NCBI RefSeq assembly: GCF_000981445.1
Contig: NW_012237264.1
Span: 1-43,559 of the forward strand
DNA: 43,559 nucleotides
Direction of reading: 5' to 3'
DNA from: Babesia bigemina
Lineage: Eukaryota
Below, in pieces: positions 5,048 through 43,559 of this stretch (position 1 is the stretch's first letter; each line of letters opens with the position of its first letter). The translations under genes and the position numbers were made by a program. The notes under the pieces were generated by a model. That model ran no database searches, was not told the origin of the DNA, and saw only the letters and a list, made by a program, of their open reading frames with translations.

Positions 5048-5232
5048 GTGCTGAACAATGTGCTGACCAAAGTGCTGCCCAAAGTGTTGACCAAGGTGCT
5101 GACCAAGATGCTGACCAATGTGCTGACCAAAGTGGTGACCAATGTGCTGACCAAGGTGCTGACCAATGTGCTGACCAAGGTGCTGACCTATGTGCTGACC
5201 AACGTGGTGACCAATGTGCTGACCAACGTGAT
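5048..5232 (+). repeat. 12-bp tandem array (GTGCTGACCAA[A/T/G/C]), module part 1
   Basis: About 15 degenerate copies read directly; the same array recurs four more times. Confidence 0.95.
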
Positions 5233-5240
5233 GACAGTAG

Positions 5241-5261
5241 ATGGTTACGGCAGCGATGACA
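5241..5261 (+). repeat. single copy of the 20-bp unit ATGGT(C/T)ACGGCAGCGATGAC, module part 2
   Basis: atggttacggcagcgatgaca at the same relative position as the multi-copy arrays at 14692, 22729, 32166 and 42467. Confidence 0.85.
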
Positions 5262-5287
5262 GTTGATGACCTAAGTGGTTATTATTA

Positions 5288-6221
5288 CCCACCCTACATC
5301 GCTCCCTAATCCACTCTACATCGCTCCCTAATCCACTCTACATCGCTCCCTAACCCACTCTACATCGCTCCCTAACCCACTCTACATCGCCCCTTTATCC
5401 ACTCCACATCGCCCCTTTACTTACTCTACATCGCTCCTCTACCCACTCCACATCGCTCCCTAATCCACTCTACATCGCCCCTTAATCCACTCTACATCGC
5501 CCTATTACCCACTCTACATCGCTCCCTAACCCACTCCACATCGCTCCCTAACCTCCTCTACATCGCTCCCTTATCCACTCCACATCGCTCCCTAACCCAC
5601 TCTACATCGCTCCCTTATCCACTCTACATCGCTCCCTAATCCACTCTACATCGCTCCCTAACCCACTCTACATCGCCCCTTTACCCACTCTACATCGCTC
5701 CTTAGTCCACCCTACATCGCTCCCTTATCCACTCTACATCGCCCCTTTACCCACTCTACATCGCCCTTTATCCACTCTACATCGCCCCTTTATCCACTCT
5801 ACATCGCCCCTTTATCCACTCCACATCGCTCCCTAATCCACTCTACATCGCCCCTTATCCACTCCACATCGCCCCTTAACTTCCTCTAATCGCTCCCTAA
5901 CCCACTCTACATCGCCCCTTAACCCACCCTTCATCGCTCCCTAATCCACTCTACATCGCCCCTTTACCCACTCCACATCGCCCCTTTATCCACTCCACAT
6001 CGCCCCTTAACCCACTCCACATCGCTCCTTTATCCACCCTTCATCGCTCCCTAACCCACTCTACATCGCTCCTTTATCCACCCTTCATCGCTCCTTAACC
6101 CACTCCACATCGCCCCTTTATCCACTCTACATCGCTCCCTAATCCACTCCACATCGCCCCTTAACCCACTCCACATCGCCCCTTTAACCACTCCACATCG
6201 CTCCTCTATCCACTCTACATC
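5288..6221 (+). repeat. 22-bp C-rich minisatellite array (CCACTCTACATCGC[T/C]CC[C/T]T[A/T]A[C/T]), module part 3
   Basis: About 0.93 kb, roughly 42 units; ends immediately before the ves leader AATCACCTCGCC. Confidence 0.97.
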
Positions 6222-6226
6222 CGCCG

Positions 6227-6252
6227 AATCACCTCGCCATAATACCGCTATG
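6227..6252 (+). promoter_or_regulatory. conserved leader AATCACCTCGCC(A/T)TAATAC(C/T)G(C/T)T-ATG joining the 22-bp array to the ves ORF (also 16941, 26101, 34972)
   Basis: Near-identical 26-mer at four array/gene junctions; any function is inferred only from position. Confidence 0.45.
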
Positions 6253-9200
6253 ACCTCTATAAACCATAATAATAACTTGTGCCTTGTCACCCTTCACGTC
6301 CCTTCCTCCACCTCTTGCAACTGCCCTGACCATGTGCCGCCTAGGGAGCCTGGCAAGAAATTTGGTAAAATTTTGAACCTCAAAAATACCTCAAATAATA
6401 ACCCTACTAACATCCTTAATAACCTCTGTACTGGCCTCGAAACATTCCTCGGCTTCAACAAAGACTCCAAAGGCTACGACGGCAGTGGCATTGTGTACTC
6501 TGACTTGGATAGGCTGTGTGACGGGGTGATGGGATTTTTGAGTGGTGTGCTTGATGCGGTGAAAAACGAAAATGAAGTGATAACTTATGATCAATACATC
6601 AGTGGAGACAATAATAGACTCAAAAAAGTACTTGACACCTTAACTAAAAATATTGGCTCCGGGCGTGCTGGGCTTGCGGAGTCTGTCCGCGCGGTGAAGG
6701 GGTGGTTGGAGGGGTATGAGAGGGAGGTGAACAATAAAATTACTGCAGTTACAGAGCCCATTGAGATAATGAAAAATCTCGTTGAACACGATAAAAATGA
6801 AATTAAAATAGAAAAAGACAAGAACCTTATTACGCAGGTTGAAGAGTGGACTAAGAGAGCCAAGCAGTATGTTAGTCTTGCTGACAAGGCCAAAAAGGCT
6901 TTAAAAGATATTGATCCTACGCTATCAGGTAAGTTAAATAATAACATTTCATTGCTGGTTCAGGCCACGGGAACGTTCAAGGCGGCGGCGGAGAATGGAG
7001 ACCTGAAGGACGTGTATGAAGAGGCGGGGAAGCAGATTTACAAGGTAGTAAAGTATGCCGAGACGGAATTCGGAAACACTAAAAAATTGCTACTGAATTA
7101 TTTGAACGAGCATATTACTGCTTTACATGATAAATTAGTCTGCTTGCAACGTGCTCAATTTGATGATCTATTTACGTCTGTGAACAATGATCTCCTGGGT
7201 GCATATGACAAGGTGAGTGATGGTATAAAGGATCTTGAACATAAATACAGAATTAGTATTTTTGATGAGGTTCATGCGCTTCAAAGTAGTTCACATAGTT
7301 TTAAGTTGTCTTTTGAAACGGCTCAGCGAGCACTTAGCCATGTGATCATCGAAATAAAAGGGGACATGGAAAAGTTCAGGGACCTGAAAGAGGTTAACAA
7401 CATAGATGTTAGTCTACGGACTCGTGTGAAGTTGTTAAACAACCTACAAAATGACCCCTTTAAATCCCTTCGAGATTATTTCGAGCAGCTTGAATCACCT
7501 ACAACGCTTTTAGCTCTAGCTTTGGCAGAAATCGGAAAAGGTATGGATACAATTAGTTCGTTTACGAAAAAGTACGAAATGGGCAAAGCAATAAAACACG
7601 CCGCGACGGCACTGAAGGAGCTAAAAAGCTGCATTGAAGGTGAAGGCGATACACAGTTGCCGAACACCAATTCCATTACCATAGGTGGAGAGATGATTAC
7701 TGTTGGCGGTGCAGATAACCTGAGGGATACTCTACGATCTCACATGTCGAACATCTCCAATGTGCTGCAGAAAATTGAGACATCGCCTACGAACGTAAAT
7801 ATCGGTGACACAACTGCTATTTTTTCCGATCTATCATCCGTTGCCGAAGCTTTATCATCGCATTCCAAAGAAATTGTTGATGCAGTAATGAAAAAAATTA
7901 CCACTCAAGTTACGGAAGACATTCAAACCGTTGCAACTTATATACATCAGAAAATGGAAAAAATGGCTAATGCTATAGATTTCACAACGGAAGGTAAAAC
8001 AGACTACGGTACATATGGCGGCGGTGCCCAGCATGCAGCCGGCCTCAAGAAGTTGGTGAATGAATTTCAGAATGCGATTAATCAAAAACTTATCGAACTT
8101 CATGGGAATGTCGGAAAAAATGAAGAGCACGAAGGCAGCGTGTACAAGGATTTGGTTGTGTTGAGAAAAAATATCACAGCACTTGCTACACAAGTGGATG
8201 TAGTCAAGGAAAATGTCAGAGCAGTTGCGGCAGAACTCAGCGGATGTATCAGGAAATCAACACGGCTTGTTAATCATGCACCTAGAATAGCAGGAGATAT
8301 GATGAATAAATTGCAAACAGTAATCTGCGGCGATATTAATAAGGGGTTTCAAAGCGTCCAACAGAAGGCAAAAACGTTGTTCACCGAAACCAAGCAAAAC
8401 CTTACTGCAGCCTTACAAAAAATAGTTAACAAGCAAATTAAAAATGTTACTGAGATTGTTTACCAAGATAGCATCTCTGGAATGAAAAGTTTCTGCAGAA
8501 GGTTAAAAACGTATTTCGTCAATGAAATTGCAAGCTTATATCCACATCCATACACGCCGCATGAACAGACACCGAAATCTCTTCAAGATTTCTCTAAGCA
8601 CCTCACGTCATTCTATCATCTATTTTTACGCGAAGTTAACCATTCATCGTTTGACGAAAAACTGGACCCAGTGTCCACCAAATTGGAGACTCTTCTTAAA
8701 CGCATTAGCGACTCCAAACATTTCGATTATCTCGTCTCACATAAGTATAATGACCTCCAAAACGCCCTCGACAACTTCGCTCCCAAAAAATTTTCGACCC
8801 CTTGTTCCCCCCTCCTCGCCCCCCTCAAGCGCGGCCTCTCCAACTTCGCGCAACAACTCGGCCACGCGTACGTGAACAGGTACTCGGGTAAACAATTTGA
8901 GGGTGAATTGTTGAAGGAAGTTAAGTCTACTACTCCTGATAAACCTGTTTCTGCCCCTAAACAACCATCCGAAAAAATTTACGTTTTAACCCCTGAGGGC
9001 CGCAACTGCGCCAAGGTCTGCCTGACGATAGTGGAGATGGTGTATCACAATCTCGACCGATTAAGAGTTGAATGTAACGGTCTTACTAAACATCAAATTA
9101 ACAAATCCACAGACATAGGTAGACTGTTTTCTGAGCTAGGATTCAAAGTTTCTGAAAAAGGTGAACAAAACGGTGAATTGCATGACGACAAGAATAAGAT

Positions 9201-11139
9201 AGGTGACTACGTATTTAAGAGGATTATGTGGCCGATTAAAAAAGCCGTGGATATCGAACACCTTCATAATTGTGAATCGAGAAAGCCGAATAGATATGAC
9301 AACTTCCACATCTTCGACATACTGCGGTGTATATACAGTCACTTTGAGCAGTACAACGAAGTCTGCCACATTGCTACTTCCTCAGCTAGGAGGCAGCCGT
9401 GCAGCGTCTATGAAATGCTTATATGGCTCACTGGTCTTCCATACGCTTCTGTATACGGCACAATGCGTGACATAACTTTGTCGGAGTTTTTTGAAGACTC
9501 AACTAAACAGGTTGCTGCAGAAATAGAGGGTATTGAGATGACACTCACGGACATTGGTGCCGTACCCATACAAGCTTGTCCACGTGACATAACGTATAGC
9601 AAAGTAACGAAAGCAATCACCCATATCTGCGCGAAAGCATATGATGTTCTCGCATCCATAGCAGGTCACGGCGACGAATACACGCTGTACGCCAGTGACT
9701 ATTGCAACAACTCTCTAGGTCTCAAATATCCTAGTTCTGGTCAGGATTGTCTTGATATGCTCCTAGATGTACTACGGAGATGCTTGCCAGCACTCCGATA
9801 CATCTTCCAGCGATGCAACGTAACCGCTGAGCACCACGGCTGGCGCAATTGTGAGTACGGCAAGGATGTGCCGACAGCCAAATCGCATTGTAGCAACAAA
9901 GCAACGAGCCAACCAAACAGCCAACCAAAGAGCGAAGCAAAGTGCCAACCAACTTCCCCGCTGATGAGCTATCTTAACGACTGCCTGCCTGGTCACTTAC
10001 CGCATAATGTCAGCTCCATAGGGTGCAGATCGGTATGCAGCAACTGTCCCTCCGCTGCGAAGCTTGGTATGCCGTGTCTGACGCCCATGGGATTCCGCGG
10101 TTTCTCTGGCTCAACCAAAAGTGGCGCGGACCTATGTGAAATAATTCGCGAATTCTTCGGTAGTGGCCTGGTAGCATCATTGCTCGGCTTGTCACCGACT
10201 CCGCCGAAAACGCTGCCAGAACACTTCGGATTTGCTTTGTCGCTTGTCAATGGATGGGTTAATATTACCAATTTGACGCCCGAGAAACGCAGTGAATTTA
10301 GCTTTCAATCGTCATTTGAATCACGCATACGTGATGTCTCTCTTAAGTTATATCCCGATTCCAATAAGTTAATAAAAACGTTGATGAGAGCATATGGTTC
10401 ACAGGCGGTTTTGCATGAATATTGCAAGCATCCTCATCTTGTCAATTTCACTAGCTCAGATATATGTCGTTACGATGTTGCAGATGTAGCCTGCGCTCCT
10501 TATCTTCAATCGCTATGCTCAGGTTCCTATGAATACATGGCCATCAAACACTGTGAACTGTACCTCACCTGGGCCATATACCTCTCATGGGATTTCTGGC
10601 GATTGCTGAACAATTTGTACAACGACTTCTGCAACATATTCTGTGCCGATTGGGGTTGCCGCGGCTGCTTGAGAGGCGATACGTGCAAGAAAGGATCGCA
10701 TGGTCGTACTGACGAAAAAACTGGGAACCCACATTGCCAGTGTCCATCAATAGTGGATTGTAATGGCGTGTCACCGACGCTGTATCGATATGGATTCAGT
10801 TTCTGTGACGCTGTCAAATTGAATGATAGTAAATATAAGAAGAAATGCTCCGATTTCTGCAGTCAGTTAAACAAATTGTTAACTTCACAATACTTCAAAG
10901 ACCTCTTCAAAGAATGCGACAACTTCATTTGGACAATCAGAGAACCGTTCACCTATCTCGTCCTGGCACTCTGGTCACTATCCCTCTTCTACCTCATTTG
11001 CGTAATGGTTGGCAGACTGGACGTGCTCCACATCAGGTCACACCTGAGGATACCGTCATCGCATAAGATTACAGCGCAGTCATTGTTGGCAGCAGCGCAA
11101 GTCGGAAGGCTTGCCAAGATATCGTACCTGCAACCGTAA
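6250..11139 (+). CDS. ves: VESA-like variant erythrocyte surface antigen, copy 2 (subtype B, divergent TM/tail)
   Basis: 1629-aa ORF with the conserved N-block and motifs TSPLMSYLNDCLPGHLPH and DWGCRGCLRGD; TM YLVLALWSLSLFYLICVMVG; tail RLDVLHIRSHLRIPSSHKITAQSLL…YLQP*. Alternative start at ATG 6529 (MGFLSGVL). Confidence 0.9.
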   Translation: MTSINHNNNLCLVTLHVPSSTSCNCPDHVPPREPGKKFGKILNLKNTSNNNPTNILNNLCTGLETFLGFNKDSKGYDGSGIVYSDLDRLCDGVMGFLSGVLDAVKNENEVITYDQYISGDNNRLKKVLDTLTKNIGSGRAGLAESVRAVKGWLEGYEREVNNKITAVTEPIEIMKNLVEHDKNEIKIEKDKNLITQVEEWTKRAKQYVSLADKAKKALKDIDPTLSGKLNNNISLLVQATGTFKAAAENGDLKDVYEEAGKQIYKVVKYAETEFGNTKKLLLNYLNEHITALHDKLVCLQRAQFDDLFTSVNNDLLGAYDKVSDGIKDLEHKYRISIFDEVHALQSSSHSFKLSFETAQRALSHVIIEIKGDMEKFRDLKEVNNIDVSLRTRVKLLNNLQNDPFKSLRDYFEQLESPTTLLALALAEIGKGMDTISSFTKKYEMGKAIKHAATALKELKSCIEGEGDTQLPNTNSITIGGEMITVGGADNLRDTLRSHMSNISNVLQKIETSPTNVNIGDTTAIFSDLSSVAEALSSHSKEIVDAVMKKITTQVTEDIQTVATYIHQKMEKMANAIDFTTEGKTDYGTYGGGAQHAAGLKKLVNEFQNAINQKLIELHGNVGKNEEHEGSVYKDLVVLRKNITALATQVDVVKENVRAVAAELSGCIRKSTRLVNHAPRIAGDMMNKLQTVICGDINKGFQSVQQKAKTLFTETKQNLTAALQKIVNKQIKNVTEIVYQDSISGMKSFCRRLKTYFVNEIASLYPHPYTPHEQTPKSLQDFSKHLTSFYHLFLREVNHSSFDEKLDPVSTKLETLLKRISDSKHFDYLVSHKYNDLQNALDNFAPKKFSTPCSPLLAPLKRGLSNFAQQLGHAYVNRYSGKQFEGELLKEVKSTTPDKPVSAPKQPSEKIYVLTPEGRNCAKVCLTIVEMVYHNLDRLRVECNGLTKHQINKSTDIGRLFSELGFKVSEKGEQNGELHDDKNKIGDYVFKRIMWPIKKAVDIEHLHNCESRKPNRYDNFHIFDILRCIYSHFEQYNEVCHIATSSARRQPCSVYEMLIWLTGLPYASVYGTMRDITLSEFFEDSTKQVAAEIEGIEMTLTDIGAVPIQACPRDITYSKVTKAITHICAKAYDVLASIAGHGDEYTLYASDYCNNSLGLKYPSSGQDCLDMLLDVLRRCLPALRYIFQRCNVTAEHHGWRNCEYGKDVPTAKSHCSNKATSQPNSQPKSEAKCQPTSPLMSYLNDCLPGHLPHNVSSIGCRSVCSNCPSAAKLGMPCLTPMGFRGFSGSTKSGADLCEIIREFFGSGLVASLLGLSPTPPKTLPEHFGFALSLVNGWVNITNLTPEKRSEFSFQSSFESRIRDVSLKLYPDSNKLIKTLMRAYGSQAVLHEYCKHPHLVNFTSSDICRYDVADVACAPYLQSLCSGSYEYMAIKHCELYLTWAIYLSWDFWRLLNNLYNDFCNIFCADWGCRGCLRGDTCKKGSHGRTDEKTGNPHCQCPSIVDCNGVSPTLYRYGFSFCDAVKLNDSKYKKKCSDFCSQLNKLLTSQYFKDLFKECDNFIWTIREPFTYLVLALWSLSLFYLICVMVGRLDVLHIRSHLRIPSSHKITAQSLLAAAQVGRLAKISYLQP

Positions 11140-11298
11140 TGGTATTCACACTTGTAATTCACAACAACTCACCTAGCATATCACCTACTCACCTAACCGA
11201 CAAACGTAGTCTAATGTCTCGAATTACTCTAGCGGCAACCTGGGAACTAGATAGCGTTGAGATTATGTGATGATTGAACAACAATGCAACGTGTTAAC

Positions 11299-11710
11299 CT
11301 AGCAGACAAGCAAAGTGTTGACCTAGCACCCAGACAAAGTGCTAAGCTGGCAGCCAGGCAAAGTGCTAAGCTAGCACCCAGGCAAAGTGTTGACCTAGCA
11401 CCCAGGCAACGTGGTAAGCTGGCACCCAGGCAAAGTGCTAAGCTAGCACCCAGGCAAAGTGGTAAGTTAGCACCCAGGCAACGTGCTAAGCAAGCACCCA
11501 GGCAAAGTGGTAAGCAAGCACACAGGCAAAGTGTTGACCTAGCAACCAGGCAAAGTGCTAAGCGAGCACCCAGGCAGAGTGCTAAGCTAGCACCCAGGCA
11601 AAGTGCTAAGCTAGCACCCAGGCAACGTGGTAAGCAAGCACCCAGGCTAAGTGTTGACCTAGCACCCAGGCAAAGTGGTATGCTAGCAACCAGGCAAAGT
11701 GTTGAGCTGG
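11299..11710 (+). repeat. 24-bp tandem array (CTAGCACCCAGGCAAAGTGCTAAG)
   Basis: About 17 units; produces the repetitive ORFs LAPRQSAK (+) and LALCLGAS (-). Confidence 0.93.
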
Positions 11711-12217: not shown

Positions 12218-13145
12218 GTGAGGGGACTGGGAGCGGCAGTGGTAGTGTTGCAGTTGGTGAGTGCTTGCTAGGTGAGTGATATGTTCGCAGGTTGAGGGGA
12301 CTGGGAGCGGCAGTGGTACGTGTTGCAGTTGGTGAGTGCTGCTTAGGGATTGATATGTTCGCAGGTTGAGGGGACTGGGAGCGGCAGTGGTACGTGTTGC
12401 AGTTGGTGAGTGCTGCTTGAGTGATTGATATGTCTGCAGGCTGAGGGGAGTGGCATCGGCAGTGGTAGTGTTGCAGTTGGTGAGTGCTTCTGAGGTGATT
12501 GATATGTTCGCAGGTTGAGGGGACTGGGAGCGGCAGTGGTACGTGTTGCAGTTGGTGAGTGCGTTGCTAGGTGATTGATATGTTCGCAGGTTGAGGGGAC
12601 TGGGAGCGGCAGTGGTACGTGTTGCAGTAGGTGAGTGCTGCTTGAGTGGTTGATATGTCTGCAGGTTGAGGGGACTGGCAGCGGTAGTGGTACGTGTTGC
12701 AGTTGGTGAGTGCGTTGCTAGGTGATTGATATGTTTGCAGGTTGAGGGGACTGGGAGCGGCAGTGGTACGTGTTGCAGTAGGTGAGTGCTGCTTGAGTGG
12801 TTGATATGTCTGCAGGTTGAGGGGACTGGCAGCGGCAGTGGTACGTGTTGCAGTAGGTGAGTGCTGCTTGAGTGGTTGATATGTCTGCAGGTTGAGGGGA
12901 CTGGCAGCGGTAGTGGTACGTGTTGCAGTTGGTGAGTGCGTTGCTAGGTGATTGATATGTTTGCAGGTTGAGGGGATTGGGCGCGGCAGTGGTAGTGTTG
13001 CAGTTGGTGAGTGCGTTGCTAGGTGATTGATATGTTCGCAGGTTGAGGGGAGTGGGCGCGGCAGTGGTAGTGTTGCAGTTGGTGAGTGCGTTGCTAGGTG
13101 ATTGATATGGTTGCAGGTTGAGGGGATTGGGAGGGGAAGGGAAAG
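12218..13145 (+). repeat. ~75-bp tandem array built of a 40-41 nt exon-like part plus a 33-35 nt GT-AG intron-like part; probable spliced 5' UTR
   Basis: 12 GTGAGT…(C/T)GCAG segments starting at 12257, 12332, 12406, 12480, 12555, 12631, 12706, 12782, 12857, 12932, 13007 and 13082. The repeat itself is certain; the intron interpretation is inferred. Confidence 0.85.
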
Positions 13146-13682
13146 ATGGTTTGGATAATATCAGGAGCTCCGTGTTCGGAGTGTGATTATAAATGTATAA
13201 CGTATAAATCGTGTAACTGCTGCCGCTGGTGTTGTAAAGTATGTAAGACTAGCTGGGGTTGCCGTGTTTGTTGGAAAGATCGTTACTACAGTGGCCGAGG
13301 TGCAAAGGACTGCCATCCTGATGGATGTAAATTCCAAAAAAAAACATGTACTGAACCCACTTGTCCTTGTAACTGTTGTGATGAGAAACGTGCAAGTGGA
13401 CAAATTTCGTCTGCCTCCTCCGATTCCCTTCCTTCAACCAGTGGACAGCAACCCTCTGGTCTCCCCGGTGTTACCGCTGCTCAGTTAGGTGACCCCGGAT
13501 CCGACGGTGACACTCTGTCCACACCTTCCCCCCCTCCCTATACTACCATAGCCGCCGTCATCGTTGCCATCATCGTCGCCATCATCCTGCTCGACCTGTG
13601 CATCTTCCGCTTTCCGGTGGGCCGCAACATCCGCGATTTCCTCGTACGCAAGATACCCTTCTGCATCGCGTTCTACAGCTGA
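13146..13682 (+). CDS. small Cys/Lys-rich single-pass membrane protein, paralog 1 (178 aa)
   Basis: N-terminal Cys-rich domain (CNCCRWCCKVC…CHPDGC…CPCNCC), Ser/Pro/Gly linker, TM IAAVIVAIIVAIILL and tail DLCIFRFPVGRNIRDFLVRKIPFCIAFYS*. The paralog at 41729 keeps the Cys pattern and has an identical tail. Confidence 0.82.
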   Translation: MVWIISGAPCSECDYKCITYKSCNCCRWCCKVCKTSWGCRVCWKDRYYSGRGAKDCHPDGCKFQKKTCTEPTCPCNCCDEKRASGQISSASSDSLPSTSGQQPSGLPGVTAAQLGDPGSDGDTLSTPSPPPYTTIAAVIVAIIVAIILLDLCIFRFPVGRNIRDFLVRKIPFCIAFYS

Positions 13683-13814
13683 TCGCAGCAATTTATTGGT
13701 GCAAACATTGTAATCCAAATCCCACTGATCACCTATCTGGCAACTGGCTTCTAATGTTCTAGACAGAGTAATGATCATGTTGATCAATCACATGAGCAGT
13801 GAGGTGACTTAGCA

Positions 13815-13925
13815 CCCGCCCCTTACATCATCGTCCCCGTCGCTCTCATCATCATCGTCATCTGCGTCATGGTCTACTTCCGCATCCGGCCGTTCCACAG
13901 GGTGCGGTATCTACTGCGCAGCTAA
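13815..13925 (+). pseudogene. orphan TM+tail coding fragment type B (PAPYIIVPVALIIIVICVMVYFRIRPFHRVRYLLRS*)
   Basis: Hand translation gives a hydrophobic helix followed by an Arg-rich tail, with C-ending codons like the real TM segments. No in-frame upstream ATG; an in-frame TGA lies just upstream. Confidence 0.6.
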
Positions 13926-13971
13926 TGCCAATAACCTAACTGACAACTGACATCTAATGTTCTAGACAGTA

Positions 13972-14172
13972 ATGATTGCGTTGATAATCAATCAGATGAG
14001 CGGTGAAGTGACTACTTCCCCCCCTCCCTACTCCGCCATCGCCGCCGTCATCGTTGGCATCATCGTCGCCATCATCCTGCTCGACCTGTGCATCTTCCGC
14101 TTTCCGGTGGGCCGCAACATCCGCGATTTCCTCGTACGCAAGATACCCTTCTGCATCGCGTTTTACAGCTAA
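13972..14172 (+). pseudogene. duplicated TM+tail fragment (type A) of the small Cys-rich gene
   Basis: 66-aa ORF whose last ~50 aa are nearly identical to the C-terminus of 13146..13682; lacks the Cys-rich domain; part of a ~490-bp tandem duplication. Confidence 0.7.
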
Positions 14173-14305
14173 TCTCAACGATTTACTGGCGCATAAATCA
14201 TCAATCCAAATTCCACCGATCACCTCACTGGCAACTGACATCTAATGTGCTAGACAGTCATAATTGCGTTGATGATCAATGACATGAGCAGTGGGTGACC
14301 ATAAC

Positions 14306-14416
14306 CCCGCCCCTTACATCATCGTCCCCGTCGCCCTCATCATCATCGTAATCTGCGTCATGAGCTACTTCCGCATCCGGCCGTTCCACAGGGTGCGGTA
14401 TCTACTGCGCAGCTAA
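14306..14416 (+). pseudogene. second copy of TM+tail fragment type B
   Basis: PAPYIIVPVALIIIVICVMSYFRIRPFHRVRYLLRS*, 491 bp downstream of the first copy. Confidence 0.6.
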
Positions 14417-22727: not shown

Positions 22728-22728
22728 G

Positions 22729-34966: not shown

Positions 34967-35273
34967 CCTCGAATCATCTCGCCTTAATACTGCTATGACT
35001 ATCTTAAACCATCCTCATAACTTGTGCCTTGTCCCCCTTCCCTTCCCTTCTTCCACCTCTTGCCACTGCCCTGACCATGTGCCGCCTAGTGAGCTTGACA
35101 AGAAATTTGACAAAATTTAAAACCTCAAAAATACCTCAAATAATGACCCTAATAACATCCTTAATAACCTCTGCTCCGGCCTCGAAAAATTCCTCGGCTT
35201 CAACCCTGACTCCAAAGGCTACGATGGCCAGGGGATTGTGTACTCCGACCTTGACAGGCTGTGTGACGGGGTG

Positions 35274-38200
35274 ATGGGATTTTTGAGTGGTGTGCTTGAT
35301 GCGGTGAAAGATGATGATGCGGTTAGAACGTACGATAAAGATATCAGTGGAGATAAAATTGATACAGTTATTAACACCTTAAATAAAAAAATTGGCTCCG
35401 GGCGTCATGGGCTTGCGGCGTCTGTCGCCGCGGTGAAGGGGTGGTTGGAGGGGTATGAATTAGAATACCGCAAAAAAGCAAGCAACGTCACAGAGGTTCT
35501 AGGTGAGTTGAAAACCAAAATTGCAGGTAAATACACTCATGATGTTGCAGGTGCTGCGGGTGAGAAGCTGGAGACCCAGTTGACCAGGTGGACAGAGACA
35601 CTTGAGTCCATCGAGCTGGACGTTAATAACACTGAAAACCAATATGTTAATATGCTAGATAGTACATTAAAACGTGATGCGATGCGTGAAGTTAAGCCGA
35701 TTAACACATCGGTTAATATGTTGCTTGATGCTGCTCAGAATCCTGAGGTGACTGAACAGGTGAAGGTCGTCGACTGGATGCTGGATGAGCAAGAAAAACG
35801 CGTAAAGAATGAGATTCGGAAACATTCGAAGCAGTTGAGAGAAACCTCTGATGGTGAGTTCCGCAAAGTATTAGGGAAAATATTTGAATTGAAAAATAAT
35901 AAGCATGAGCAATTTGGACATGTCCGAAATGTAGTGGGGATGGCAAAGGAGGAGGCGCAGGGCTTGTTGGCAAGATTCGACGGAGAATATCGGAAGCAGA
36001 TTATTCGTCATTTTGACGCAATCAAAGGAGCGCTCGCTGACGTTAATATGAAAGAAAATCCAACTGGTAAAATGAATACATCTAAACTCAAAGAGGATGC
36101 TGAAAAAATAAAAACTTCGTTGGAAACCATATCCCTCAGGTTGGGAGGCCATGTTGGTGAGTTGGAAAATTGGATGTACAAGACTAAAAACCACATAAAT
36201 GAGTTCAAAGAACAGGAAGTTGAAAAAATCATTGAGCTAAACAAAGGGGGATTTGGGAGTTGGAAAGAAAATATAACGCAGGCCGCAAAAGAGGTTTATA
36301 CGGAGACGAATAGGTTCGATGAACAATTTCAGTTATTAAAGGCGAAATTGGAAGAAGAGGTTGAACATGTTAATGGAAGAGGCGGCGCGTTGTCACAGCT
36401 TACCGCGCTTGAGAATCATATGAACGGAGAGGTGCCTAGGGAGTTGGCCGGTTTTAAAACAAATGGGTGGACGTTGACTGAGCAGATCACTGAGCTTACG
36501 AGTAGAATAACAACAAACGTAAAAGAATACGTTAAAACACATTTAGGAAAACAGATAAAGGGTGAAGTAGAAAAAAAAACAAATAAAATCATAAAGCAAG
36601 ATGCGAGACAGGGCGGAGATAATGGCTTTCTTGGTGATATCGAAACAAAGATTTACGCGTATGCGAAGACCTTCCAACTGCAACAGTTTGGCAATAAGGT
36701 CGAGGAGTGGATTATAAACATATTACAGAAAGATCCGGTTAAAGAATGGCTTGCAGCGTATATATCGTCCAACGCGAATGGAAGGCTCGGAAACAAACAA
36801 ACACATGAGTTGCATACTCCGATTCTGAATGCAATAAAAATAGCTGTGGAGGCAGCTATTAGAACAGCCGGTGAAATGATCGAAGTTCAAGGCAAAGATC
36901 AAATTAGAGACAACATAGAAACTGTTAAAAAAGCCTGCAACCATTTTGCTACCCAACTTGAAGCGCATTTTACGAGTGCCAAAATTAATGGTTTTGTGAA
37001 GGATTTAGTTGACAAAGTGGAGAAAACGTTGACGGGTGCACACTCGAATACAGTTTACAGCGCACATCTCGTAATCGCCTTGCAAGCTACCCTTGCTTCA
37101 CTTGCCGCTAAAGCTAGGCAGGTTGCTTCTGAACTGGATTCGTTGGTAATCAGTAGTCAGCACAACATTGCACTGAATTTGCAAAGTGCGATACGAGACG
37201 TTAAAGCACTCGGTAACAGTATTGAGATGGAGATTGGAAAGACTGATAGTGTCCCCCACGGCTCTGCCGAGAATCTTGGTCACCAAATTCAAACTCAACT
37301 TGGCAATCAAGCGACAAATAGGGACTTTGACAACCAGCTCTGTGAGCTTTTGCAAGCTGCAATAAAAAATGGTGTCAAGAAGTTGCAGGAAGCACTTAAC
37401 GGTTCTGCTATCAGCAAACTCAAAAGTGTTGATAAAAGCGTTGAAGGCGTTGTTGAATCAGCCAAACAGGCCAAAGAAGGGGTTGCAGGTCGAGTGAAAG
37501 AAATTGAAACGAACCTCACCGAACTGATGAGCTGGATTACCGAAACCGGAAATATCGTTAAAAATGAATTACAAAAGCTGATTAACTATAAAATATATGG
37601 CTCGCTAACTGAAGTCAAAAACAAAATTGGAACACTGCGTACTACTGATTTGTACAACGTGATAGATACCGACATTAAAGCCGTCAATGCGATAATCGCC
37701 TCACTGGAATCGCTTCCCGGAGTTGTTGACACGATGAAAGGGGAGACGGAAGCGAAAATGGAAACTTTGCAAGAAAACGTAGATGTACTTCAAAAGCTAT
37801 TGGTAAACATCGAAGTTAATGTCAAACTTGCCGACGAACAGATCGAGAAGTCTATTGATGTCGTTCAACAATGTCTTCAAGATTCCTGTGAGAACGTCAC
37901 AACAGCTATCGAATTACTTGAAAACAACCTTATTGCCGTCGTTGCAGATGCATTTCAACGAGTGACGCAGGAAGTCCGGGCAATGTTCGCCAAAGAAAGA
38001 ACCGCCCACCTCTCCGCCCTCAAGACCCTCCTCTCCACCCAGCTCAAGATCATCACCTGCACCGTCAACAAAAACCTCAACACCGGCCTGAAAGGCTTCC
38101 TCAAGACGCTGAGCGGGGATTCTGTCGACGATTACGCGGCTGGTTATAAGGAGCGTCCGAAGCATCTCCCTCCTAAAACTCAGAAGCCCAATCTGCTCGA

Positions 38201-40874
38201 CCCAGTGAAGACCGCTCTTGGCGGAGGTGGACATGGAGAGAAAGTGAAATCGCTGTCCGATAGATCACAAGCCTATTTCCTTCACCTTTTCACCTACTTG
38301 CGTAAAGATATGGAGAAACATTTTACTTCTCAGCCTCAGGTCCACGGTGACTATCATAGTCGTATCAACACCATCCGCTCGAACCTCACCACCCTCCTCG
38401 ACCACATCAGCACTCACAAACACTTCGACCACCAGGTGCCCCAAATGCTCGACACACTCAAGAAGTCCCTTACCACCTTCACGTCCTCGCACTTCGGCAA
38501 CGCATCCTACCCCGTGCTCGACGCCTTTCCCCGAAGCCTGGAGCAGTTCGTCGACGAGCTGGAGAGGATGTACGTGAATAGGTATGATGGGCATAAGCAG
38601 AAGGTTAATATGGGTAAATTGGTTATTAGTGATGGTGATAAAGGTGAAAAATTAACGGATGACGGCAGAAACTTGTCGAAGGTATTTTTGACGAGTTTGG
38701 TGACTTTGAAAGCCGGGTTAGACGAGTTAAAGCAGAATGCTCCAAACGCCTGGAGAGGAAGACAAATTTATTTGCAAGACAGTAACGAAGATGAAAACTC
38801 ATTTGGTCAATTTTTGAACAAGTGCGGTTACAAAGTTTCCAAGTCGCATGATTCCCATGAAGGTCACCTGAGGAATAAGGAGCAGTGCAAAGGTCAATAT
38901 ATCCACGACGGTCTTCTTGTAGGCGATAAGCAGCATATTTATCACTCAGATAAAAACGGTAAACGTGCACTCGAGATACTTTTCGACTATTTGGAGACAT
39001 ACAACGACTTATGCCATCTCTCAACATTAACCTCCAAGAGACAGCCATGCTCCGTGTACGAGATGCTCGCTTGGCTCTCGGGACTAACGCACAATCCGGT
39101 ACACCAAAGTAAGCTAAGCGTAGCCATCATGAACGTTTTGGAAGAGCTATACAAAAGAGGTAGAGAAGATGAGGGAGAACATGGCGACGTATTAGCAGTA
39201 GAACGACAAGCAGACGGAGGGGAGTTCAAAGTGTCATTGGTTGATGCACGCTCCGTATCCCTGGAAGCCTACCCACGTGACGTATCATATGATGAACTGT
39301 GGGCAGCCGTGACGCATATATGTTCGACTTCATATGACGTCCTTTGCGCAATTGCCGGTCACGGCGACGAATTCACGACATACGCTGTGGACTATTCCAA
39401 CAATCACATGAAATTCAATTACCCCCAAAACGGGGAAGATTGTCTCGATATGCTCCTTGACATCCTTCGTCGAATGTTGCCAACATTACAATATTTGTAT
39501 AGTCAGTGCAGGCTCAGCAATGGGCTCAACGGTTGGCAAGCGTGCAAGTACGGCAAGGATATCATGACAGCCAAATGGCCATGCAAAGTTCATCCATCCG
39601 ACGAACCAGATAATAAATCAAACTGCCAAGCAAAGTGTAAACCAACGTGCCAAGCAAAGTGCGAAGTAACGTGCCAAGTAGATTGCCAACCAACATCGCC
39701 ATTGATGAGTTACCTGAACGACTGCTTGCCGGGTCATTTACCTCATCAACTTACTAAAATTGGATGTAAGTACGAGTGTTCCAATTGCTCAACTTCTAAA
39801 AAGGGTAAGCCTTGCCTGACGCCTCTTGGATTCAAAGGTTTCTCCGGATCCACACGTATGGGTAAGGACATATGTGAAGTGCTGACCAAATTCATCAACA
39901 TCAAGCATCTTACGGGTCTATTCACGCTGATTCCCAAGCCGCCTTCCACGTTGCCAGAGCACTTCGGTTTTACCTTGGCGCTGGCGATTGGTATTAATGC
40001 AACATCTAGAACTAATAATTACGATCCTCATGCGTTTAGAGGCGTGTTTGCCGCATCCATCTACGAGCAAACTATTAACCTCTGTACCGACCAATCCACA
40101 TTGACCAATGCGTTAACCGACGCATATGGGTCGCCGTCTCCAACACATGGCGTATGCGAACATGCCCACGTTAGAAATCTCACGGCGTCCGATAGCTGCA
40201 AAGGGAAGACCAATTTGGAACTCGAATGCGCTCCGTACCTTGCCAATTTATCTGTCGACTGTTATCGATACCTCGGTAAAAAGCATTCCAACCTCTACTT
40301 GTCATGGGCTGTCTACCTCCCTTGGAGCTTTTGGACGAATCTTAAAAATCTATATGACGCGTTTTGCAACATTTACTGTCAAGACTGGGGCTGTCGTGGT
40401 TGCTTAAGAGGCGACAAGTGCAAACGTGGAGAACATGGATCAATAAGTGACGCTTCCAAACAACCTAATTGCCAATGCCACTCCATTGTTGACTGCAGAG
40501 GCGTCGCTCCAACTTTGTACAGTTATGGCTTTTCCTTCGGTGACCCATCGAAATTGCAGAACGAGCATTATCCAAACACATGTGCCGACTTCCGCAAGCA
40601 ATTGAAAAATGTATTGAAGTCGGAATACTTCACAAAATTATTTGAAGAGTGTGACAAATTCTTATTCACCATCAGAGAGCCCTTCATCTGGCTCAACGTC
40701 GCCCTCTGGCTCCTCTCCTTCCTCTACCTCCTCCACATCATGGTCATCCGCCTCGACCTGCTCCACATCAAATCGCATTTGCACTCACCATCATCACATC
40801 GCATCGCCACGCAATCACTACTCGCCGCTGCACGTGTTAAAGCACTCAACAAAGTGCTGTACCTGCAACCTTGA
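35274..40874 (+). CDS. ves: VESA-like variant erythrocyte surface antigen, copy 5 (subtype B); upstream ATG 34995 is interrupted by TAA 35118-35120
   Basis: Long ORF with TSPLMSYLNDCLPGHLPH, DWGCRGCLRGDKCK, TM and …YLQP*. The first ATG after the stop is 35274; 35238 in the ORF track is a GTG. Confidence 0.85.
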   Translation: MGFLSGVLDAVKDDDAVRTYDKDISGDKIDTVINTLNKKIGSGRHGLAASVAAVKGWLEGYELEYRKKASNVTEVLGELKTKIAGKYTHDVAGAAGEKLETQLTRWTETLESIELDVNNTENQYVNMLDSTLKRDAMREVKPINTSVNMLLDAAQNPEVTEQVKVVDWMLDEQEKRVKNEIRKHSKQLRETSDGEFRKVLGKIFELKNNKHEQFGHVRNVVGMAKEEAQGLLARFDGEYRKQIIRHFDAIKGALADVNMKENPTGKMNTSKLKEDAEKIKTSLETISLRLGGHVGELENWMYKTKNHINEFKEQEVEKIIELNKGGFGSWKENITQAAKEVYTETNRFDEQFQLLKAKLEEEVEHVNGRGGALSQLTALENHMNGEVPRELAGFKTNGWTLTEQITELTSRITTNVKEYVKTHLGKQIKGEVEKKTNKIIKQDARQGGDNGFLGDIETKIYAYAKTFQLQQFGNKVEEWIINILQKDPVKEWLAAYISSNANGRLGNKQTHELHTPILNAIKIAVEAAIRTAGEMIEVQGKDQIRDNIETVKKACNHFATQLEAHFTSAKINGFVKDLVDKVEKTLTGAHSNTVYSAHLVIALQATLASLAAKARQVASELDSLVISSQHNIALNLQSAIRDVKALGNSIEMEIGKTDSVPHGSAENLGHQIQTQLGNQATNRDFDNQLCELLQAAIKNGVKKLQEALNGSAISKLKSVDKSVEGVVESAKQAKEGVAGRVKEIETNLTELMSWITETGNIVKNELQKLINYKIYGSLTEVKNKIGTLRTTDLYNVIDTDIKAVNAIIASLESLPGVVDTMKGETEAKMETLQENVDVLQKLLVNIEVNVKLADEQIEKSIDVVQQCLQDSCENVTTAIELLENNLIAVVADAFQRVTQEVRAMFAKERTAHLSALKTLLSTQLKIITCTVNKNLNTGLKGFLKTLSGDSVDDYAAGYKERPKHLPPKTQKPNLLDPVKTALGGGGHGEKVKSLSDRSQAYFLHLFTYLRKDMEKHFTSQPQVHGDYHSRINTIRSNLTTLLDHISTHKHFDHQVPQMLDTLKKSLTTFTSSHFGNASYPVLDAFPRSLEQFVDELERMYVNRYDGHKQKVNMGKLVISDGDKGEKLTDDGRNLSKVFLTSLVTLKAGLDELKQNAPNAWRGRQIYLQDSNEDENSFGQFLNKCGYKVSKSHDSHEGHLRNKEQCKGQYIHDGLLVGDKQHIYHSDKNGKRALEILFDYLETYNDLCHLSTLTSKRQPCSVYEMLAWLSGLTHNPVHQSKLSVAIMNVLEELYKRGREDEGEHGDVLAVERQADGGEFKVSLVDARSVSLEAYPRDVSYDELWAAVTHICSTSYDVLCAIAGHGDEFTTYAVDYSNNHMKFNYPQNGEDCLDMLLDILRRMLPTLQYLYSQCRLSNGLNGWQACKYGKDIMTAKWPCKVHPSDEPDNKSNCQAKCKPTCQAKCEVTCQVDCQPTSPLMSYLNDCLPGHLPHQLTKIGCKYECSNCSTSKKGKPCLTPLGFKGFSGSTRMGKDICEVLTKFINIKHLTGLFTLIPKPPSTLPEHFGFTLALAIGINATSRTNNYDPHAFRGVFAASIYEQTINLCTDQSTLTNALTDAYGSPSPTHGVCEHAHVRNLTASDSCKGKTNLELECAPYLANLSVDCYRYLGKKHSNLYLSWAVYLPWSFWTNLKNLYDAFCNIYCQDWGCRGCLRGDKCKRGEHGSISDASKQPNCQCHSIVDCRGVAPTLYSYGFSFGDPSKLQNEHYPNTCADFRKQLKNVLKSEYFTKLFEECDKFLFTIREPFIWLNVALWLLSFLYLLHIMVIRLDLLHIKSHLHSPSSHRIATQSLLAAARVKALNKVLYLQP

Positions 40875-41580
40875 TAGACCACCTCACCACCACTCACCTA
40901 ACTCACTACCTAGCAACCCACCGCCTAACCTAATACTCACCCAAATATATTACGTAATTCCTACTCAGCAATTGGCAGTTAATGTAGTTCATGCAATTAT
41001 AGGTTCTTGTTTTGCGATATAGAGTTGTGAGCTACAGGTGAAATGTGCCCACGCCCTCCCATGGCTTTAGTGGGTAGTGATGTCGGGTTATAAGTCATCA
41101 ACCTACGCTGCTTAAGCGTGTTGTGATAAGTGAACGTGAAGCGTATGAAACGTGACTGTGTTGAACGTTAGCTATCATGTGCGATGTTAGGCAATGAATG
41201 TAGCTGCGGTTACCCTATGTGATGGCCAGTGGGCGGCGTAGCTATGTGACATTGATGGCAACGGTGTAAATGAGAAGCACGTTAATCAAGTGATGTGGCT
41301 CAGTTAGGCACTAATGATGACACAAAGGTGATGATATTTATAAGCGGAATTGGCAACGTCGGATGGACTGCAATGGATCAAATTGCCTTATCAAATGACA
41401 CCGGGTGACCTGCATGCCACGGCGAGGATACCAGCCACGTGCTCTACCTCGGTAGTACTTCAGCTTTGGCAGCTGCATAGTTGTGATGTAATTGGATGTA
41501 AGTTTTATGGCGGTTAGCCGGGTGGCTGTGGAACTTATGGAAGACGGCAGTGTCCTTGGCTGAGGTACGTGGTTCATGGT

Positions 41581-41728
41581 TGCAGTTGGTGAGTGCGTTG
41601 CTAGGTGATTGATAAGGTTGCAGGTTGAGGGGACTGGGCGCGGCAGTGGTACGTGTTGCAGTAGGTGAGTGCGTTGCTTGAGTGATTGATATGTTTGCAG
41701 GCTGAGGGGACTGGGACTGGGAGGGAAG
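41581..41728 (+). repeat. two copies of the ~75-bp exon/intron-like leader unit
   Basis: GT-AG segments at 41589-41623 and 41665-41700, homologous to the 12218-13145 array. Confidence 0.8.
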
Positions 41729-42244
41729 ATGGGTTATTACGATTGTATATGTGGTACTGGATGTGTAAGATTAGTAGTATGTTATTGCTGCCCGTGGTGT
41801 TGTGAAAAATGTACTACTGGCATTGGTTGCAATGGATGTTGGTATGATTTTAATTATACGCGCAAAAAGAGCAAGCACTGCCATCCTAAAGGATGTGAAC
41901 AACAACAAAAGCAGTGTACCGACTTTAAAAAATGTGGATGTGAATGTTGCCTGAAGAAACGTCCACCTGAACAGCTTGCTGCCTCCCATTCTTCCTCCGG
42001 TGCAGAGTCTTCTGCTCCCTCCGGTGTTGCCGCTCGGACTGGTGGTCTCGATTCCCACGGTGAAGATCTGTCTACCACTTCTACACCTTTCCGCCCTGAC
42101 CCCCAAGCCATCGCCGCCGTCATCGTTACCCTTATCGTCGCCATCATCCTGCTCGACCTGTGCATCTTCCGCTTCCCGGTGGGCCGCAACATCCGCGATT
42201 TCCTCGTACGAAAGATACCCTTCTGCATCGCTTTCTACAGCTGA
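41729..42244 (+). CDS. small Cys/Lys-rich single-pass membrane protein, paralog 2 (171 aa)
   Basis: CYCCPWCCEKC…CHPKGC…CGCECC, Ser-rich linker, TM and a tail identical to paralog 1. Confidence 0.82.
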   Translation: MGYYDCICGTGCVRLVVCYCCPWCCEKCTTGIGCNGCWYDFNYTRKKSKHCHPKGCEQQQKQCTDFKKCGCECCLKKRPPEQLAASHSSSGAESSAPSGVAARTGGLDSHGEDLSTTSTPFRPDPQAIAAVIVTLIVAIILLDLCIFRFPVGRNIRDFLVRKIPFCIAFYS

Positions 42245-42369
42245 ACTCCGCAATTTGTAAGTGCATAAATCATTAATCCAAATTCCACCGATAACCTAAC
42301 TGGCAACTGACATCTAATGTTGTAGACAGAGTAGTGATTGCGTTGATGAACAATCGCATGAGCAGTGAG

Positions 42370-42461
42370 GTGACCAAGCAATTGACCAATGCCATGACCA
42401 AGGTGTTGACCAAGGTGCTGACCAATGTGCTGACCAACGTGTTGACCAAAGTGCTGACCAA
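42370..42461 (+). repeat. 12-bp tandem array
   Basis: GTG(C/T)TGACCAA units. Confidence 0.9.
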
Positions 42462-42466
42462 GTTAG

Positions 42467-42706
42467 TGGTTATGGCAGCGATGGCATGATCACGGCAGGG
42501 GTGACATGATCACGGCAGGGGTGACATGGTTACGGCAGCGATGACATGGACACGGCAGCGATGACATGGTCACGGCAGCGATGAGATGGTTACGGCAGCG
42601 ATGAGATGGTTACGGCAGCGATGACATGGTTACGGCAGCGATGACACGGTCACGGCAGCGATGACATGGTTACGGCAGCGATGACACGGTCACGGCAGCG
42701 ATGACA
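42467..42706 (+). repeat. 20-bp tandem array (about 12 copies)
   Basis: ATGGT(C/T)ACGGCAGCGATGAC. Confidence 0.93.
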
Positions 42707-42732
42707 GTGGTGAACAGAGTGGTGATTATTAT

Positions 42733-43559
42733 CCACTCCACATCGCCCCTTAACCCACCCTACATCGCCCCTTTATCCACTCTACATCGCTCCCTAACCC
42801 ACTCTACATCGCTCCCTAACCCACTCTACATCGCCCCTTTACCCACTCCACATCGCCCCTTAACCTCCTCTAATCGCCCCTTTACCCACTCCACATCGCC
42901 CCTTAACCTCCTCTAATCGCCCCTTAACCCACTCCACATCGCTCCCTAACCCACTCCACATCGCCCCTTTATCCACTCTACATCGCTCCTTAACCCACCC
43001 TACATCGCCCCTTTAACCACTCTACATCGCTCCCTAACCCACTCTACATCGCCCCTTTATCCACTCTACATCGCTCCCTAACCCACTCTTCATCGCCCCT
43101 TTATCCACTCTACATCGCTCCTTTACCCACTCTACATCGCCCCTTTACCCACTCTCCATCGCTCCCTAACCCACTCTACATCGCCCCTTTATCCACTCTA
43201 CATCGCCCCTTTATCCACTCTACATCGCCCCTTTATCCACTCCACATCGCTCCCTAACCCACTCTACATAGCTCCCTAACCCACTCTACATCGCTCCCTA
43301 ACCCACTCTACATCGCCCCTTTATCCACTCTACATCGCCCCTTTATCCACTCTACATCGCCCCTTAACCCACTCTACATCGCCCCTTTATCCACTCTACA
43401 TCGCCCCTTTATCCACTCTACATCGCCCCTTTATCCACTCTACATCGCCCCTTATCCACTCTACATCGCCCCTTAATCCACCTTACATCGCTCCTTAACC
43501 CACTCCACATCGTCCCTTATCCACTCTACATCGCCCCTTAACCCACTCTACATCGCTCC
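42733..43559 (+). repeat. 22-bp C-rich minisatellite array, truncated by the window end
   Basis: Same unit; runs to the last base. Confidence 0.97.

Follow-up and report, generated by a model that had tools for sequence, protein, structure and literature searches.

A contig of the cattle parasite Babesia bigemina, analysed here over its whole 43,559 bases (the window), carries a head-to-tail run of ves1b genes, with all features lying on the + strand. The canonical N-terminal head of expressed VESA1B is missing from all four complete copies, and each of these follows an ordered module of 12-bp, 20-bp and 22-bp tandem repeats. This headless run may be a silent subtelomeric donor archive accompanied by TARE/rep20-like arrays, a tentative reading to which we give slightly less than even confidence. 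An archive had been proposed in an earlier note on this DNA, and the idea is strengthened by the missing head, which did not figure in that account.

A run of headless ves1b genes

Five ves1b genes were delineated from open reading frames, translations and homology. Gene 1 (130..4920) comprises body and TM tail; its 5' end coincides with the contig edge and its frame is disturbed over bases 1-130. Counted from the leader ATG, gene 2 (6250..11139) has 1629 codons and gene 4, with its leader block (26101..31748), 1874. In genes 3 (16941..22432) and 5 (34972..40874), both including the leader block, the frame opened by the leader ATG meets a stop at codon 42; their bodies are open over 17090-22432 and 35121-40874, respectively. 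All five bodies are open over 1,500+ codons with the TM tail intact, which is unusual for pure patch donors and counts against an archive. Between adjacent bodies, protein identity is about 30%. Window proteins share 26-36% identity across their length with labelled ves1b proteins and end in one C-terminal hydrophobic helix, so that homology and the conserved C-terminal TM domain place them in BbigVes1b. The Pfam scan returned no family name for the window proteins, and VESA1_N matched neither these nor any of the four head-bearing B. bigemina proteins scanned (0/4); an Rfam scan gave 0 matches.

The leader motif was found at 6227, 16941, 26101 and 34972 (the last with one mismatch), with the ATG 23 bases further on. 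The earlier claim of about 300 bp of highly similar 5' ves sequence held, as the four blocks are 83-96% identical per 30-nt bin across 330 bases, beyond which identity drops to 34-62%. In gene 2 the block (6227..6556) likely consists of a non-coding leader up to about position 6393 followed by a family-wide conserved segment. The leader-block ATG is probably not a real coding start, since the first 48 codons look unconstrained and are interrupted by a stop in two of the four window copies; both stops lie at one codon and therefore probably go back to one event. Among 16 other block proteins, codons 2-48 showed 49 substitutions with a mean BLOSUM score of -1.18, compared with 25 substitutions and a mean of -0.04 for codons 49-94 (p=0.0007), where random single-base changes give about -0.6. 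A codon-position test on the DNA of the four window copies alone was not significant (p=0.17). Judged from these substitutions, protein-level constraint is lost over the first 48 codons.

A tblastn comparison of the window with 28 head-bearing homologues (residues 1-130 of each) matched only the 5' blocks and detected no head-encoding DNA. The leader begins 21 other database proteins, never together with a head, and among 127 proteins 23 carry the block, 28 the head and none both. The segment of codons 49-104 is common to head-bearing and headless genes.

An ordered repeat module upstream of each complete gene

Tandem Repeats Finder (TRF) and a mismatch scan confirmed five modules, as the earlier note had described them, in the order 12-bp array, 20-bp array, junction, 22-bp array. 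Module 1 consists of a 12-bp array of about 16 units (5048..5235), which starts 128 bases past the gene 1 stop, a single 20-mer with the junction (5241..5284; junction at 5275) and a 22-bp array of about 42 units that is C-rich on the + strand (5289..6221). In module 2 the 12-bp array (14510..14690; TRF start 14537) is followed by six 20-mers and the junction (14692..14834; junction at 14825) and about 96 22-bp units (14839..16937). Module 3 has its 12-bp array, two 20-mers (TRF start 22729) and junction (22781) at 22558..22790, and about 151 22-bp units with an internal 345-base duplication at 22791..26097. The corresponding parts of module 4 are a 12-bp array, ten 20-mers (TRF start 32166) and the junction (32374) at 31874..32383, and about 118 22-bp units at 32388..34970. 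Module 5 comprises a 12-bp array (TRF 42371-42395), twelve 20-mers (TRF start 42474) and the junction (42719) at 42367..42728; the 3' edge of the window falls inside its 22-bp array (42733..43559; TRF to 43556). The mismatch scan agreed exactly with the reported 20-mer copy numbers of 1, 6, 2, 10 and 12, and the 22-bp arrays range from 0.9 to 3.3 kb. All 437 matches to the 22-mer lie on the + strand within five clusters. No stray 20- or 22-mers occur in the 30,527 non-array bases, nor in any of five shuffles of those bases.

The claim that a module precedes every ves gene stands for the four of five genes whose 5' flank the window includes; gene 1 abuts the edge of the contig. Assignment of the whole module to the ves 5' end was borne out in its association with ves genes but not for the 12-bp part, which goes better with the 3' end of the gene before it. 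In four of five modules the 12-bp array starts 123-128 bases past the preceding stop, three of these gaps of about 125 bases following a ves gene and the fourth belonging to module 5. Furthermore, a 24-bp array related to the 12-mer (11286..11708, TRF) starts 147 bases past the gene 2 stop and is followed not by a ves gene but by a small Cys-rich one. The 12-bp-type arrays thus track gene 3' ends, and two unrelated 3' flanks of similar length each terminate in a 12-bp array.

Two small genes, each encoding a Cys-rich protein with a single TM segment, interrupt the run. The first (13146..13682) belongs to a B. bigemina family with 36 homologues and follows a 75/76-bp array (12219..13133) whose units each include an intron-like GT-AG stretch of 33-35 bases. 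A 491-bp duplication has left three additional TM-tail fragments, of two types, behind this gene (13800..14420). The second (41729..42244) follows about two 75-bp units (41557..41716). The two spacers before the small genes showed no mutual likeness (score 19; shuffles up to 24).

A HMMER search with the 233-residue translation of an array gave 14 matches, of which one (P0161) is a true array-plus-block locus and 13 look like unrelated low-complexity proteins. The module was also seen in two other DNA sequencing runs (X2 and X3), and the junction in another sample; no RNA run was listed as carrying the sequence in the sequencing-run search, and an exact two-unit 22-mer pattern had 0 matches in metagenome contigs. 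The repeat units are degenerate (118 distinct of 408), therefore the array is not a collapsed perfect repeat, and together with the P0161 locus and runs X2 and X3 this makes an assembly artefact unlikely. The arrays are nowhere described in the literature searched, which took in few subscription papers and lay apart from older B. bigemina repetitive-probe work.

Genome position and expression of relatives

Chromosome-scale contigs carry 3 of 29 block or leader proteins compared with 13 of 14 head-bearing ones (p=2e-7; 30 unclassified rows left out). Block and leader genes lie on small contigs or scaffold ends, and head-bearing ones on chromosomes. Headless relatives are found 7-109 kb from scaffold ends, for example the block gene BBBOND_0212310, 21 kb from an end on the reverse strand; these positions rely on an assumed order of concatenated coordinates, and scaffold ends need not be telomeres. 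No telomere lies within the window, and its subtelomeric location is inferred from these relatives.

The dominant expressed VESA1B (BBBOND_0303890, P0075) carries the head, as do all eight checkable proteome rows labelled ves1b, the other 10 of 18 falling outside our hit set. The published proteome also contains BBBOND_0212310, labelled ves1b in a table of PMC5660447, with 6 peptides, one of which served for quantitation, and a level near 8% of that of the dominant VESA1B; four further genes annotated without a head are listed as well. Peptides of a headless relative count against an archive. They may represent shared or converted segments of another isolate matched to the reference, and in-situ expression fits them equally well.

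These peptides, together with the five open bodies and intact TM tails, are what an expressed short-form ves1b subfamily would predict, in which the module would act as promoter and 5' leader, perhaps partly spliced out, with translation from the later conserved Met at codon 95, where 8 of 120 database models start. A pyrimidine tract closed by a conserved YAG, some 115 bases from the start of the block, is consistent with such a leader, the small genes likewise have an array in theirs, and the sense strand of the 22-bp arrays has hardly any ATG (0, 2, 0, 0 and 0). However, the scarcity of ATG is explained by each unit having just one G, the arrays range from 0.9 to 3.3 kb in length, the checkable proteome rows all carry the head, and the stretch upstream of the later Met, untranslated under this model, still shows protein-like constraint. 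We therefore regard short-form expression as unlikely.

Visible edges of exchange tracts lie at internal motifs

Exchange edges were read from proteins, so that upstream tract edges are invisible. Residues 673-1596 of gene 1 are near-identical to P0111, and 38580-40871 of gene 5 is near-identical in protein to P0045 while its whole 5' part differs. Each of the five tracts with 480 or more near-identical residues has an edge lying no more than about 30 residues from a GFKG or YxNxY motif, and both motifs are also peaks of DNA depth (summed contig depths, used qualitatively only). As read from the proteins, recent swaps of half-genes have their breaks at conserved blocks inside the gene rather than at the conserved 3' end. 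A tree built from the C-terminal 650 residues mixes head-bearing and headless genes, the head label needing 9 changes, at least 4 of them forced. Of 34 tracts of 100 or more residues, none joins a strictly head-bearing to a headless gene, and the longest joining run is 47 residues, which again counts against an archive.

The breakpoints also bear on the model of the earlier note, in which the arrays serve as an upstream conversion border, as the 70-bp repeats do for VSG genes, and an array-bearing expression site receives whole cassettes. The module does precede 4/4 complete genes and recurs at a further locus, the arrays exchange sequence, and the first ~75 leader bases are joined to differing downstream sequence in other samples and proteins; the 5' difference between gene 5 and P0045 could come from a tract that starts upstream. 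Nevertheless, VSG-style borders, with the array upstream and the conserved 3' end downstream, find no support in the visible tract edges, which lie at internal motifs. No array-bearing expression site was seen, as the leader is absent from head-bearing proteins (0/127), and the most widely shared 5' DNA is the block at 26284-26477 and not the leader. Head-bearing genes, moreover, were assembled into chromosomes, an outcome that long arrays tend to hinder, and conversion in B. bovis is described in the accessible text of PMC6630957 as short patches. We consider this model improbable. It is possible that arrays start exchanges, as upstream tract edges fall outside the protein view.

Sequence properties of the arrays

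Arrays 2 and 4 share 210 exact bases, compared with 64-74 in unit-order shuffles, by which measure the arrays exchange sequence with one another. Quadruplex motifs are frequent on the array minus strand (36, loops up to 12; 2 on either strand in 21.9 kb of ves sequence), and the G-rich strand can be read as quadruplex-prone. Selected G-quadruplexes were rejected, since same-base shuffles give as many or more (loop-15 count, G4Hunter); the potential appears compositional. The 20-mer is predicted to be able to fold back on both neighbours; the fold z of -6.2 was discounted because dinucleotide shuffles destroy periodicity. A coding role of the 22-bp array was rejected, its period being no multiple of 3 and stops being frequent, and so was a telomere-repeat origin, as the exact CCCTAAA heptamer was not found in the arrays.

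That the archive is real and the arrays are inert, minisatellites grown by slippage in one ancestral spacer and spread by tandem gene duplication, would suit their freely varying copy numbers, the compositional quadruplex potential, the likeness of the 12-mer to a coding 12-base repeat inside ves genes and a 20-mer that may have arisen by inverted copying of a 12/22 junction, but it is a doubtful account, because order, polarity and junction are preserved in 5/5 modules beside such divergent bodies, the junction recurs in another sample and both unrelated 3' flanks end in the 12-bp array at about equal length.

Proposed function

In the archive reading, the headless window genes would form a chromosome-end store of donor sequence whose silence we infer. 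Body segments would pass from it into head-bearing expressed ves1b genes by ectopic recombination running through family-wide blocks, namely the 5' conserved segment, the two mid-gene motifs and the TM tail. By analogy with the telomere-associated repeats of Plasmodium, the modules are predicted to act in silencing, clustering and pairing, and not as fixed swap borders; exchange between arrays, the quadruplex-prone strand and the fold-back of the 20-mer would suit a heterochromatic or break-prone element. A bolder proposal, to which we assign low probability, is a dedicated two-part system of antigenic variation, undescribed in Apicomplexa, in which chromosome-end headless VESA1b cassettes feed half-gene swaps into head-bearing loci, the middle unit of the module folding back on both neighbours and the G-rich strand licensing breaks.

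Surface-antigen variation in B. bigemina has so far been inferred from B. bovis and from trees. A headless class with its own repeat tag would divide the ves1b repertoire into donors and expression-competent loci, supply markers for ChIP and long-read switch mapping, and account for many such genes sitting unlabelled on unplaced contigs, where two block genes without a ves label were found. Since the conserved 5' segment also contains matches to the primers of the standard SpeI-AvaI diagnostic PCR, the copy number of their target depends on the ves1b family.

Comparison with known systems

The following comparisons draw on the accessible parts of the cited papers. The window genes resemble BbigVes1b in belonging to the same family with a conserved TM tail, and recombination and transposition of ves1 are established (PMC4066756). 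In its accessible part, that account (Jackson et al., 2014) makes no mention of headless copies, a conserved leader or flanking arrays; the word 'repeat' occurs three times in the main text, and flanking recombination motifs 'may exist'.

As in the VSG cassettes of Trypanosoma brucei (PMC4227765), variable-length arrays lie upstream of archive genes, here before 4/4 window genes and at one more locus. The 70-bp repeats of T. brucei are a border for duplicative transposition into an expression site bearing the same repeats, whereas the B. bigemina module has three ordered units and no such site was seen. The msg-I archive of Pneumocystis (PMC10622565) consists of subtelomeric tandem genes without the 5' part required for expression and with a conserved starting block also present in the expressed form, to which codons 49-104 correspond in B. 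bigemina. The Pneumocystis CRJE is 33 bp long without kilobase arrays and serves one expression site (UCS); B. bigemina has many head-bearing loci (15 strictly head-bearing among 91 proteins) and also uses mid-gene blocks in swaps. In B. bovis, silent donors feed transcribed ves genes by segmental gene conversion at the LAT, and predicted G4 motifs are enriched near ves loci (PMC6630957, PMC9047050). Divergent gene pairs, a bidirectional promoter and short patches characterise that system, in contrast to the head-to-tail headless genes and half-gene swaps of B. bigemina.

The rep20/TARE and SPE2 repeats of Plasmodium falciparum (PMC2169929, PMC3218844) were compared by description, not sequence. 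Both they and the ves1b modules consist of short tandem units, degenerate in sequence, that lie before variant-antigen genes, in P. falciparum the subtelomeric upsB var genes; rep20 promotes the clustering of chromosome ends, and chromatin is compacted by SPE2 arrays. P. falciparum has one repeat set per chromosome end, separated by more than 2 kb from a gene that is complete and has a promoter of its own, while the window has one module per gene, abutting a truncated gene. As in P. falciparum, the headless B. bigemina relatives point away from the scaffold end.

Results

The repeat module is real. As the earlier note had claimed, the same series of 12-bp array, 20-bp array, junction and 22-bp array was found five times, with order, strand and junction alike in 5/5 modules, and its 20-mer counts (1, 6, 2, 10 and 12 in modules 1-5) and varying 22-bp array lengths (0.93, 2.1, 3.3, 2.6 and at least 0.83 kb) were reproduced. 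Within the window, neither the 20-mer nor the 22-mer occurred outside the modules. The 12-mer gave 16 matches outside the arrays at two mismatches (5-8 in shuffles), in part because ves genes contain a coding 12-base repeat. This repeat lies in their Cys-rich part (3620-3680, 9902-9952, 21189-21254 and 39624-39694) and resembles the non-coding 12-mer.

At another locus (protein P0161, 2.6-kb contig), translated 22-mers run directly into the same conserved 5' block that follows the arrays in the window. The 22-mer was very abundant in two other DNA sequencing runs (X2 and X3); there, the leader, the stretch following the 22-bp array, was shared over its initial ~75 bases before the continuations diverged, and in X3 the junction was present ahead of the array start. 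One loose end in X3 (3 contigs) exits the 22-bp array into non-leader sequence; therefore, not all arrays need end in the block. In modules 2 (14827/16941) and 3 (22783/26101), and imperfectly in modules 1 and 4, the 22-bp array is bracketed by a 7-base inverted pair, which may be due to chance.

The module had been assigned as a whole to the ves 5' end. This holds for the 22-mer array, which adjoins the ves leader in 4/4 cases, but less well for the 12-mer, which is better tied to the 3' side of the preceding gene: in modules 1, 3, 4 and 5 it starts 128, 126, 126 and 123 bases after the preceding stop, behind two unrelated 3' flanks, and in module 2 it lies ~95-120 bases past the last TM-tail fragment. 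Since the 22-mer abuts the leader and the 12-mer keeps a set distance from the prior stop, the module amounts to an intergenic spacer with a fixed order of parts: one associated with 3' ends, a hinge, and one associated with ves leaders. A 24-mer related to the 12-mer begins 147 bases past gene 2, with a small gene as the next gene after it; no array was found behind gene 5. Each unit of the 24-bp array (11286-11708) contains a 6-base inverted repeat around a loop of 3 bases. On the minus strand, 9 of 10 copies of a perfect splice-donor-like 8-mer were located within 60 bases past the five ves stops (4946, 4966, 11167, 11187, 22458, 22476, 31774, 31792 and 40892).

The small genes (13146-13682 and 41729-42244) belong to an unnamed B. 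bigemina family with 36 homologues and no Pfam match, encoding Cys-rich proteins of ~180 residues whose TM tail hardly varies; by locus number, members adjoin a block gene on chromosome II. Directly ahead of them lies a 75/76-bp array (12219-13133 and 41557-41716) that contains 12 intron-like GT-AG segments, each 33-35 bases long; translated traces of this array occur in many database models of the family. Behind small gene 1, two types of TM-tail fragment alternate (A-B-A-B) as the result of a 491-bp duplication (13525-14505), and both types are present in database models.

The window, which is an entire contig of 43,559 bases, contains five long plus-strand ORFs, whose homologues (best 120 of 150) were B. 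bigemina and B. ovata proteins. In the PMC5660447 supplement, BBBOND_0212310, which carries the same 5' block, and the dominant expressed VESA1B, BBBOND_0303890, are both labelled ves1b; of six accessions looked up there, four bear this label and two, on unplaced contigs, bear none. The ves1b copies of the window lack the N-terminal head and are here called headless. In full-length ves1b, the head starts at a conserved motif and typically extends over ~160-180 residues up to the SDLxRLC motif; the window copies begin 83 codons ahead of the latter. Using the N-termini of 28 head-bearing homologues, tblastn matched only the 5' blocks in the window. Among 127 proteins, 23 had the block (two being the window's own), 28 the head and none both. 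As part of the block aligned with the final stretch of the head region in full-length P0064, the block is decayed coding sequence. In 16 block proteins from outside the window, codons 2-48 showed no protein-like constraint: mean BLOSUM was -1.18 there vs -0.04 in codons 49-94 (p=0.0007; three seemingly frame-shifted rows dropped, -1.13 with them). In genes 3 and 5, codon 42 is a stop. Variable columns by codon position in the four window copies were 11/12/12 (codons 1-48) and 6/4/12 (49-94), a difference not significant by itself (p=0.17). The segment of codons 49-104 was the 5' DNA most widely shared in the other DNA runs.

The two primers checked from the SpeI-AvaI nested PCR in wide use for B. 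bigemina (PMC3979951) matched this segment at four and two sites with at most three mismatches (0 expected), at 6500-6523, 17161-17237, 26374-26397 and 35192-35268; what this diagnostic assay amplifies is probably multicopy ves1b DNA. Homology of ves2 to the 5'-most 500 bp of ves1b is on record; this stretch would roughly correspond to the part absent from headless genes, and head-only and headless families may exist side by side.

Position classes were derived from 77 proteins with intact C-terminus, 30 of them unclassifiable. On chromosome-scale contigs were 3/29 non-window block or leader proteins vs 13/14 head-bearing ones; automated models on small contigs may lose a short first exon, to which the leader class is more exposed than the block class. 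By proteome coordinates (concatenation in chromosome order assumed), BBBOND_0212310 and four further genes whose annotation lacks the full head lie on the reverse strand, at 7-109 kb from right scaffold ends, whereas the dominant expressed gene lies 0.98 Mb inside its scaffold. If the window resembles these scaffold-end relatives, its genes would be directed away from the telomere, an orientation also found in P. falciparum upsB var genes, and the G-rich 22-mer strand would run telomere-ward.

The ves bodies of the window are ~27-43% identical to one another. The last 924 residues of gene 1 are near-identical to P0111 and the last 764 of gene 5 to P0045, with mostly 10-60% identity before. Among 91 proteins, 34 tracts of 100+ residues were detected; each of the five tracts of 480+ residues has an edge within ~30 residues of a GFKG or YxNxY motif. 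The visible swap points are internal, be the pairs two loci of a single genome or the same locus in two genomes. A FastTree tree of the last 650 residues mixes head-bearing with headless genes (9 changes vs 12.3 in shuffles, 12/500 as low). Tracts common to both did not exceed 47 residues, apart from a 200-residue tract in P0013 and P0049, where the model retains only part of the head. The 22-bp arrays exchange sequence too: exact shared stretches measured 210 bases between arrays 2 and 4, 126 between arrays 2 and 3, and 345 within array 3, compared with 58-96 in unit-order shuffles (three per pair).

The 22-mer is rich in G on its minus strand (plus-strand mean G4Hunter ~-1.0; 36 quadruplex motifs when loops of up to 12 are allowed), with no excess of the quadruplex signal over base composition; G4 enrichment has been reported close to B. 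bovis ves loci (PMC9047050). The 20-mers at 14692-14812, 32164-32371 and 42466-42708 are partly reverse-complementary to a 22-mer variant (9/10 bases, p=0.027) and a 12-mer variant (10/11 bases, p=0.002; several variants tried, uncorrected), and modules folded better than with position-permuted 20-mers (non-independent z values of -1.7 to -3.9). This is a modest signal, for which an old inversion could also account.

Discussion

We tentatively favour a reading in which headless ves1b genes would be silent subtelomeric sequence donors, exchange with this archive would run through internal conserved blocks and the arrays would, by analogy, act like telomere-associated repeats. In the PR proteome, 8/8 checkable ves1b-labelled rows (18 in all) were head-bearing. 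The main evidence against silence is the entry of headless BBBOND_0212310, with six peptides, one for quantitation, and an iBAQ of 700 vs 8525 for the dominant VESA1B. Its peptides may stem from converted or shared sequence, because its last 702 residues are common to BBBOND_0313910, which is also listed. In-situ expression of short-form ves1b seems less likely to us. The VSG-type model of the earlier note, with arrays in the role of 70-bp repeats, is possible but rather unlikely: an expression site bearing arrays was not found, and visible breakpoints fall elsewhere, at internal motifs. That the arrays are functionless is about as unlikely.

No description of the module or the headless ves1b class was found in the openly accessible text of the literature searched, and both are probably undescribed so far. 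Besides the systems below, the literature drawn on for comparison included PMC4066756, PMC10463595, PMC6630957, PMC4227765 and PMC9500797. As far as the sources cover it, the B. bigemina system, although not a member of either, resembles the Pneumocystis msg-I archive (PMC10622565) in its missing heads and common junction block, and rep20/SPE2 (PMC2169929, PMC3218844) in having arrays upstream of antigen genes, here putatively subtelomeric.
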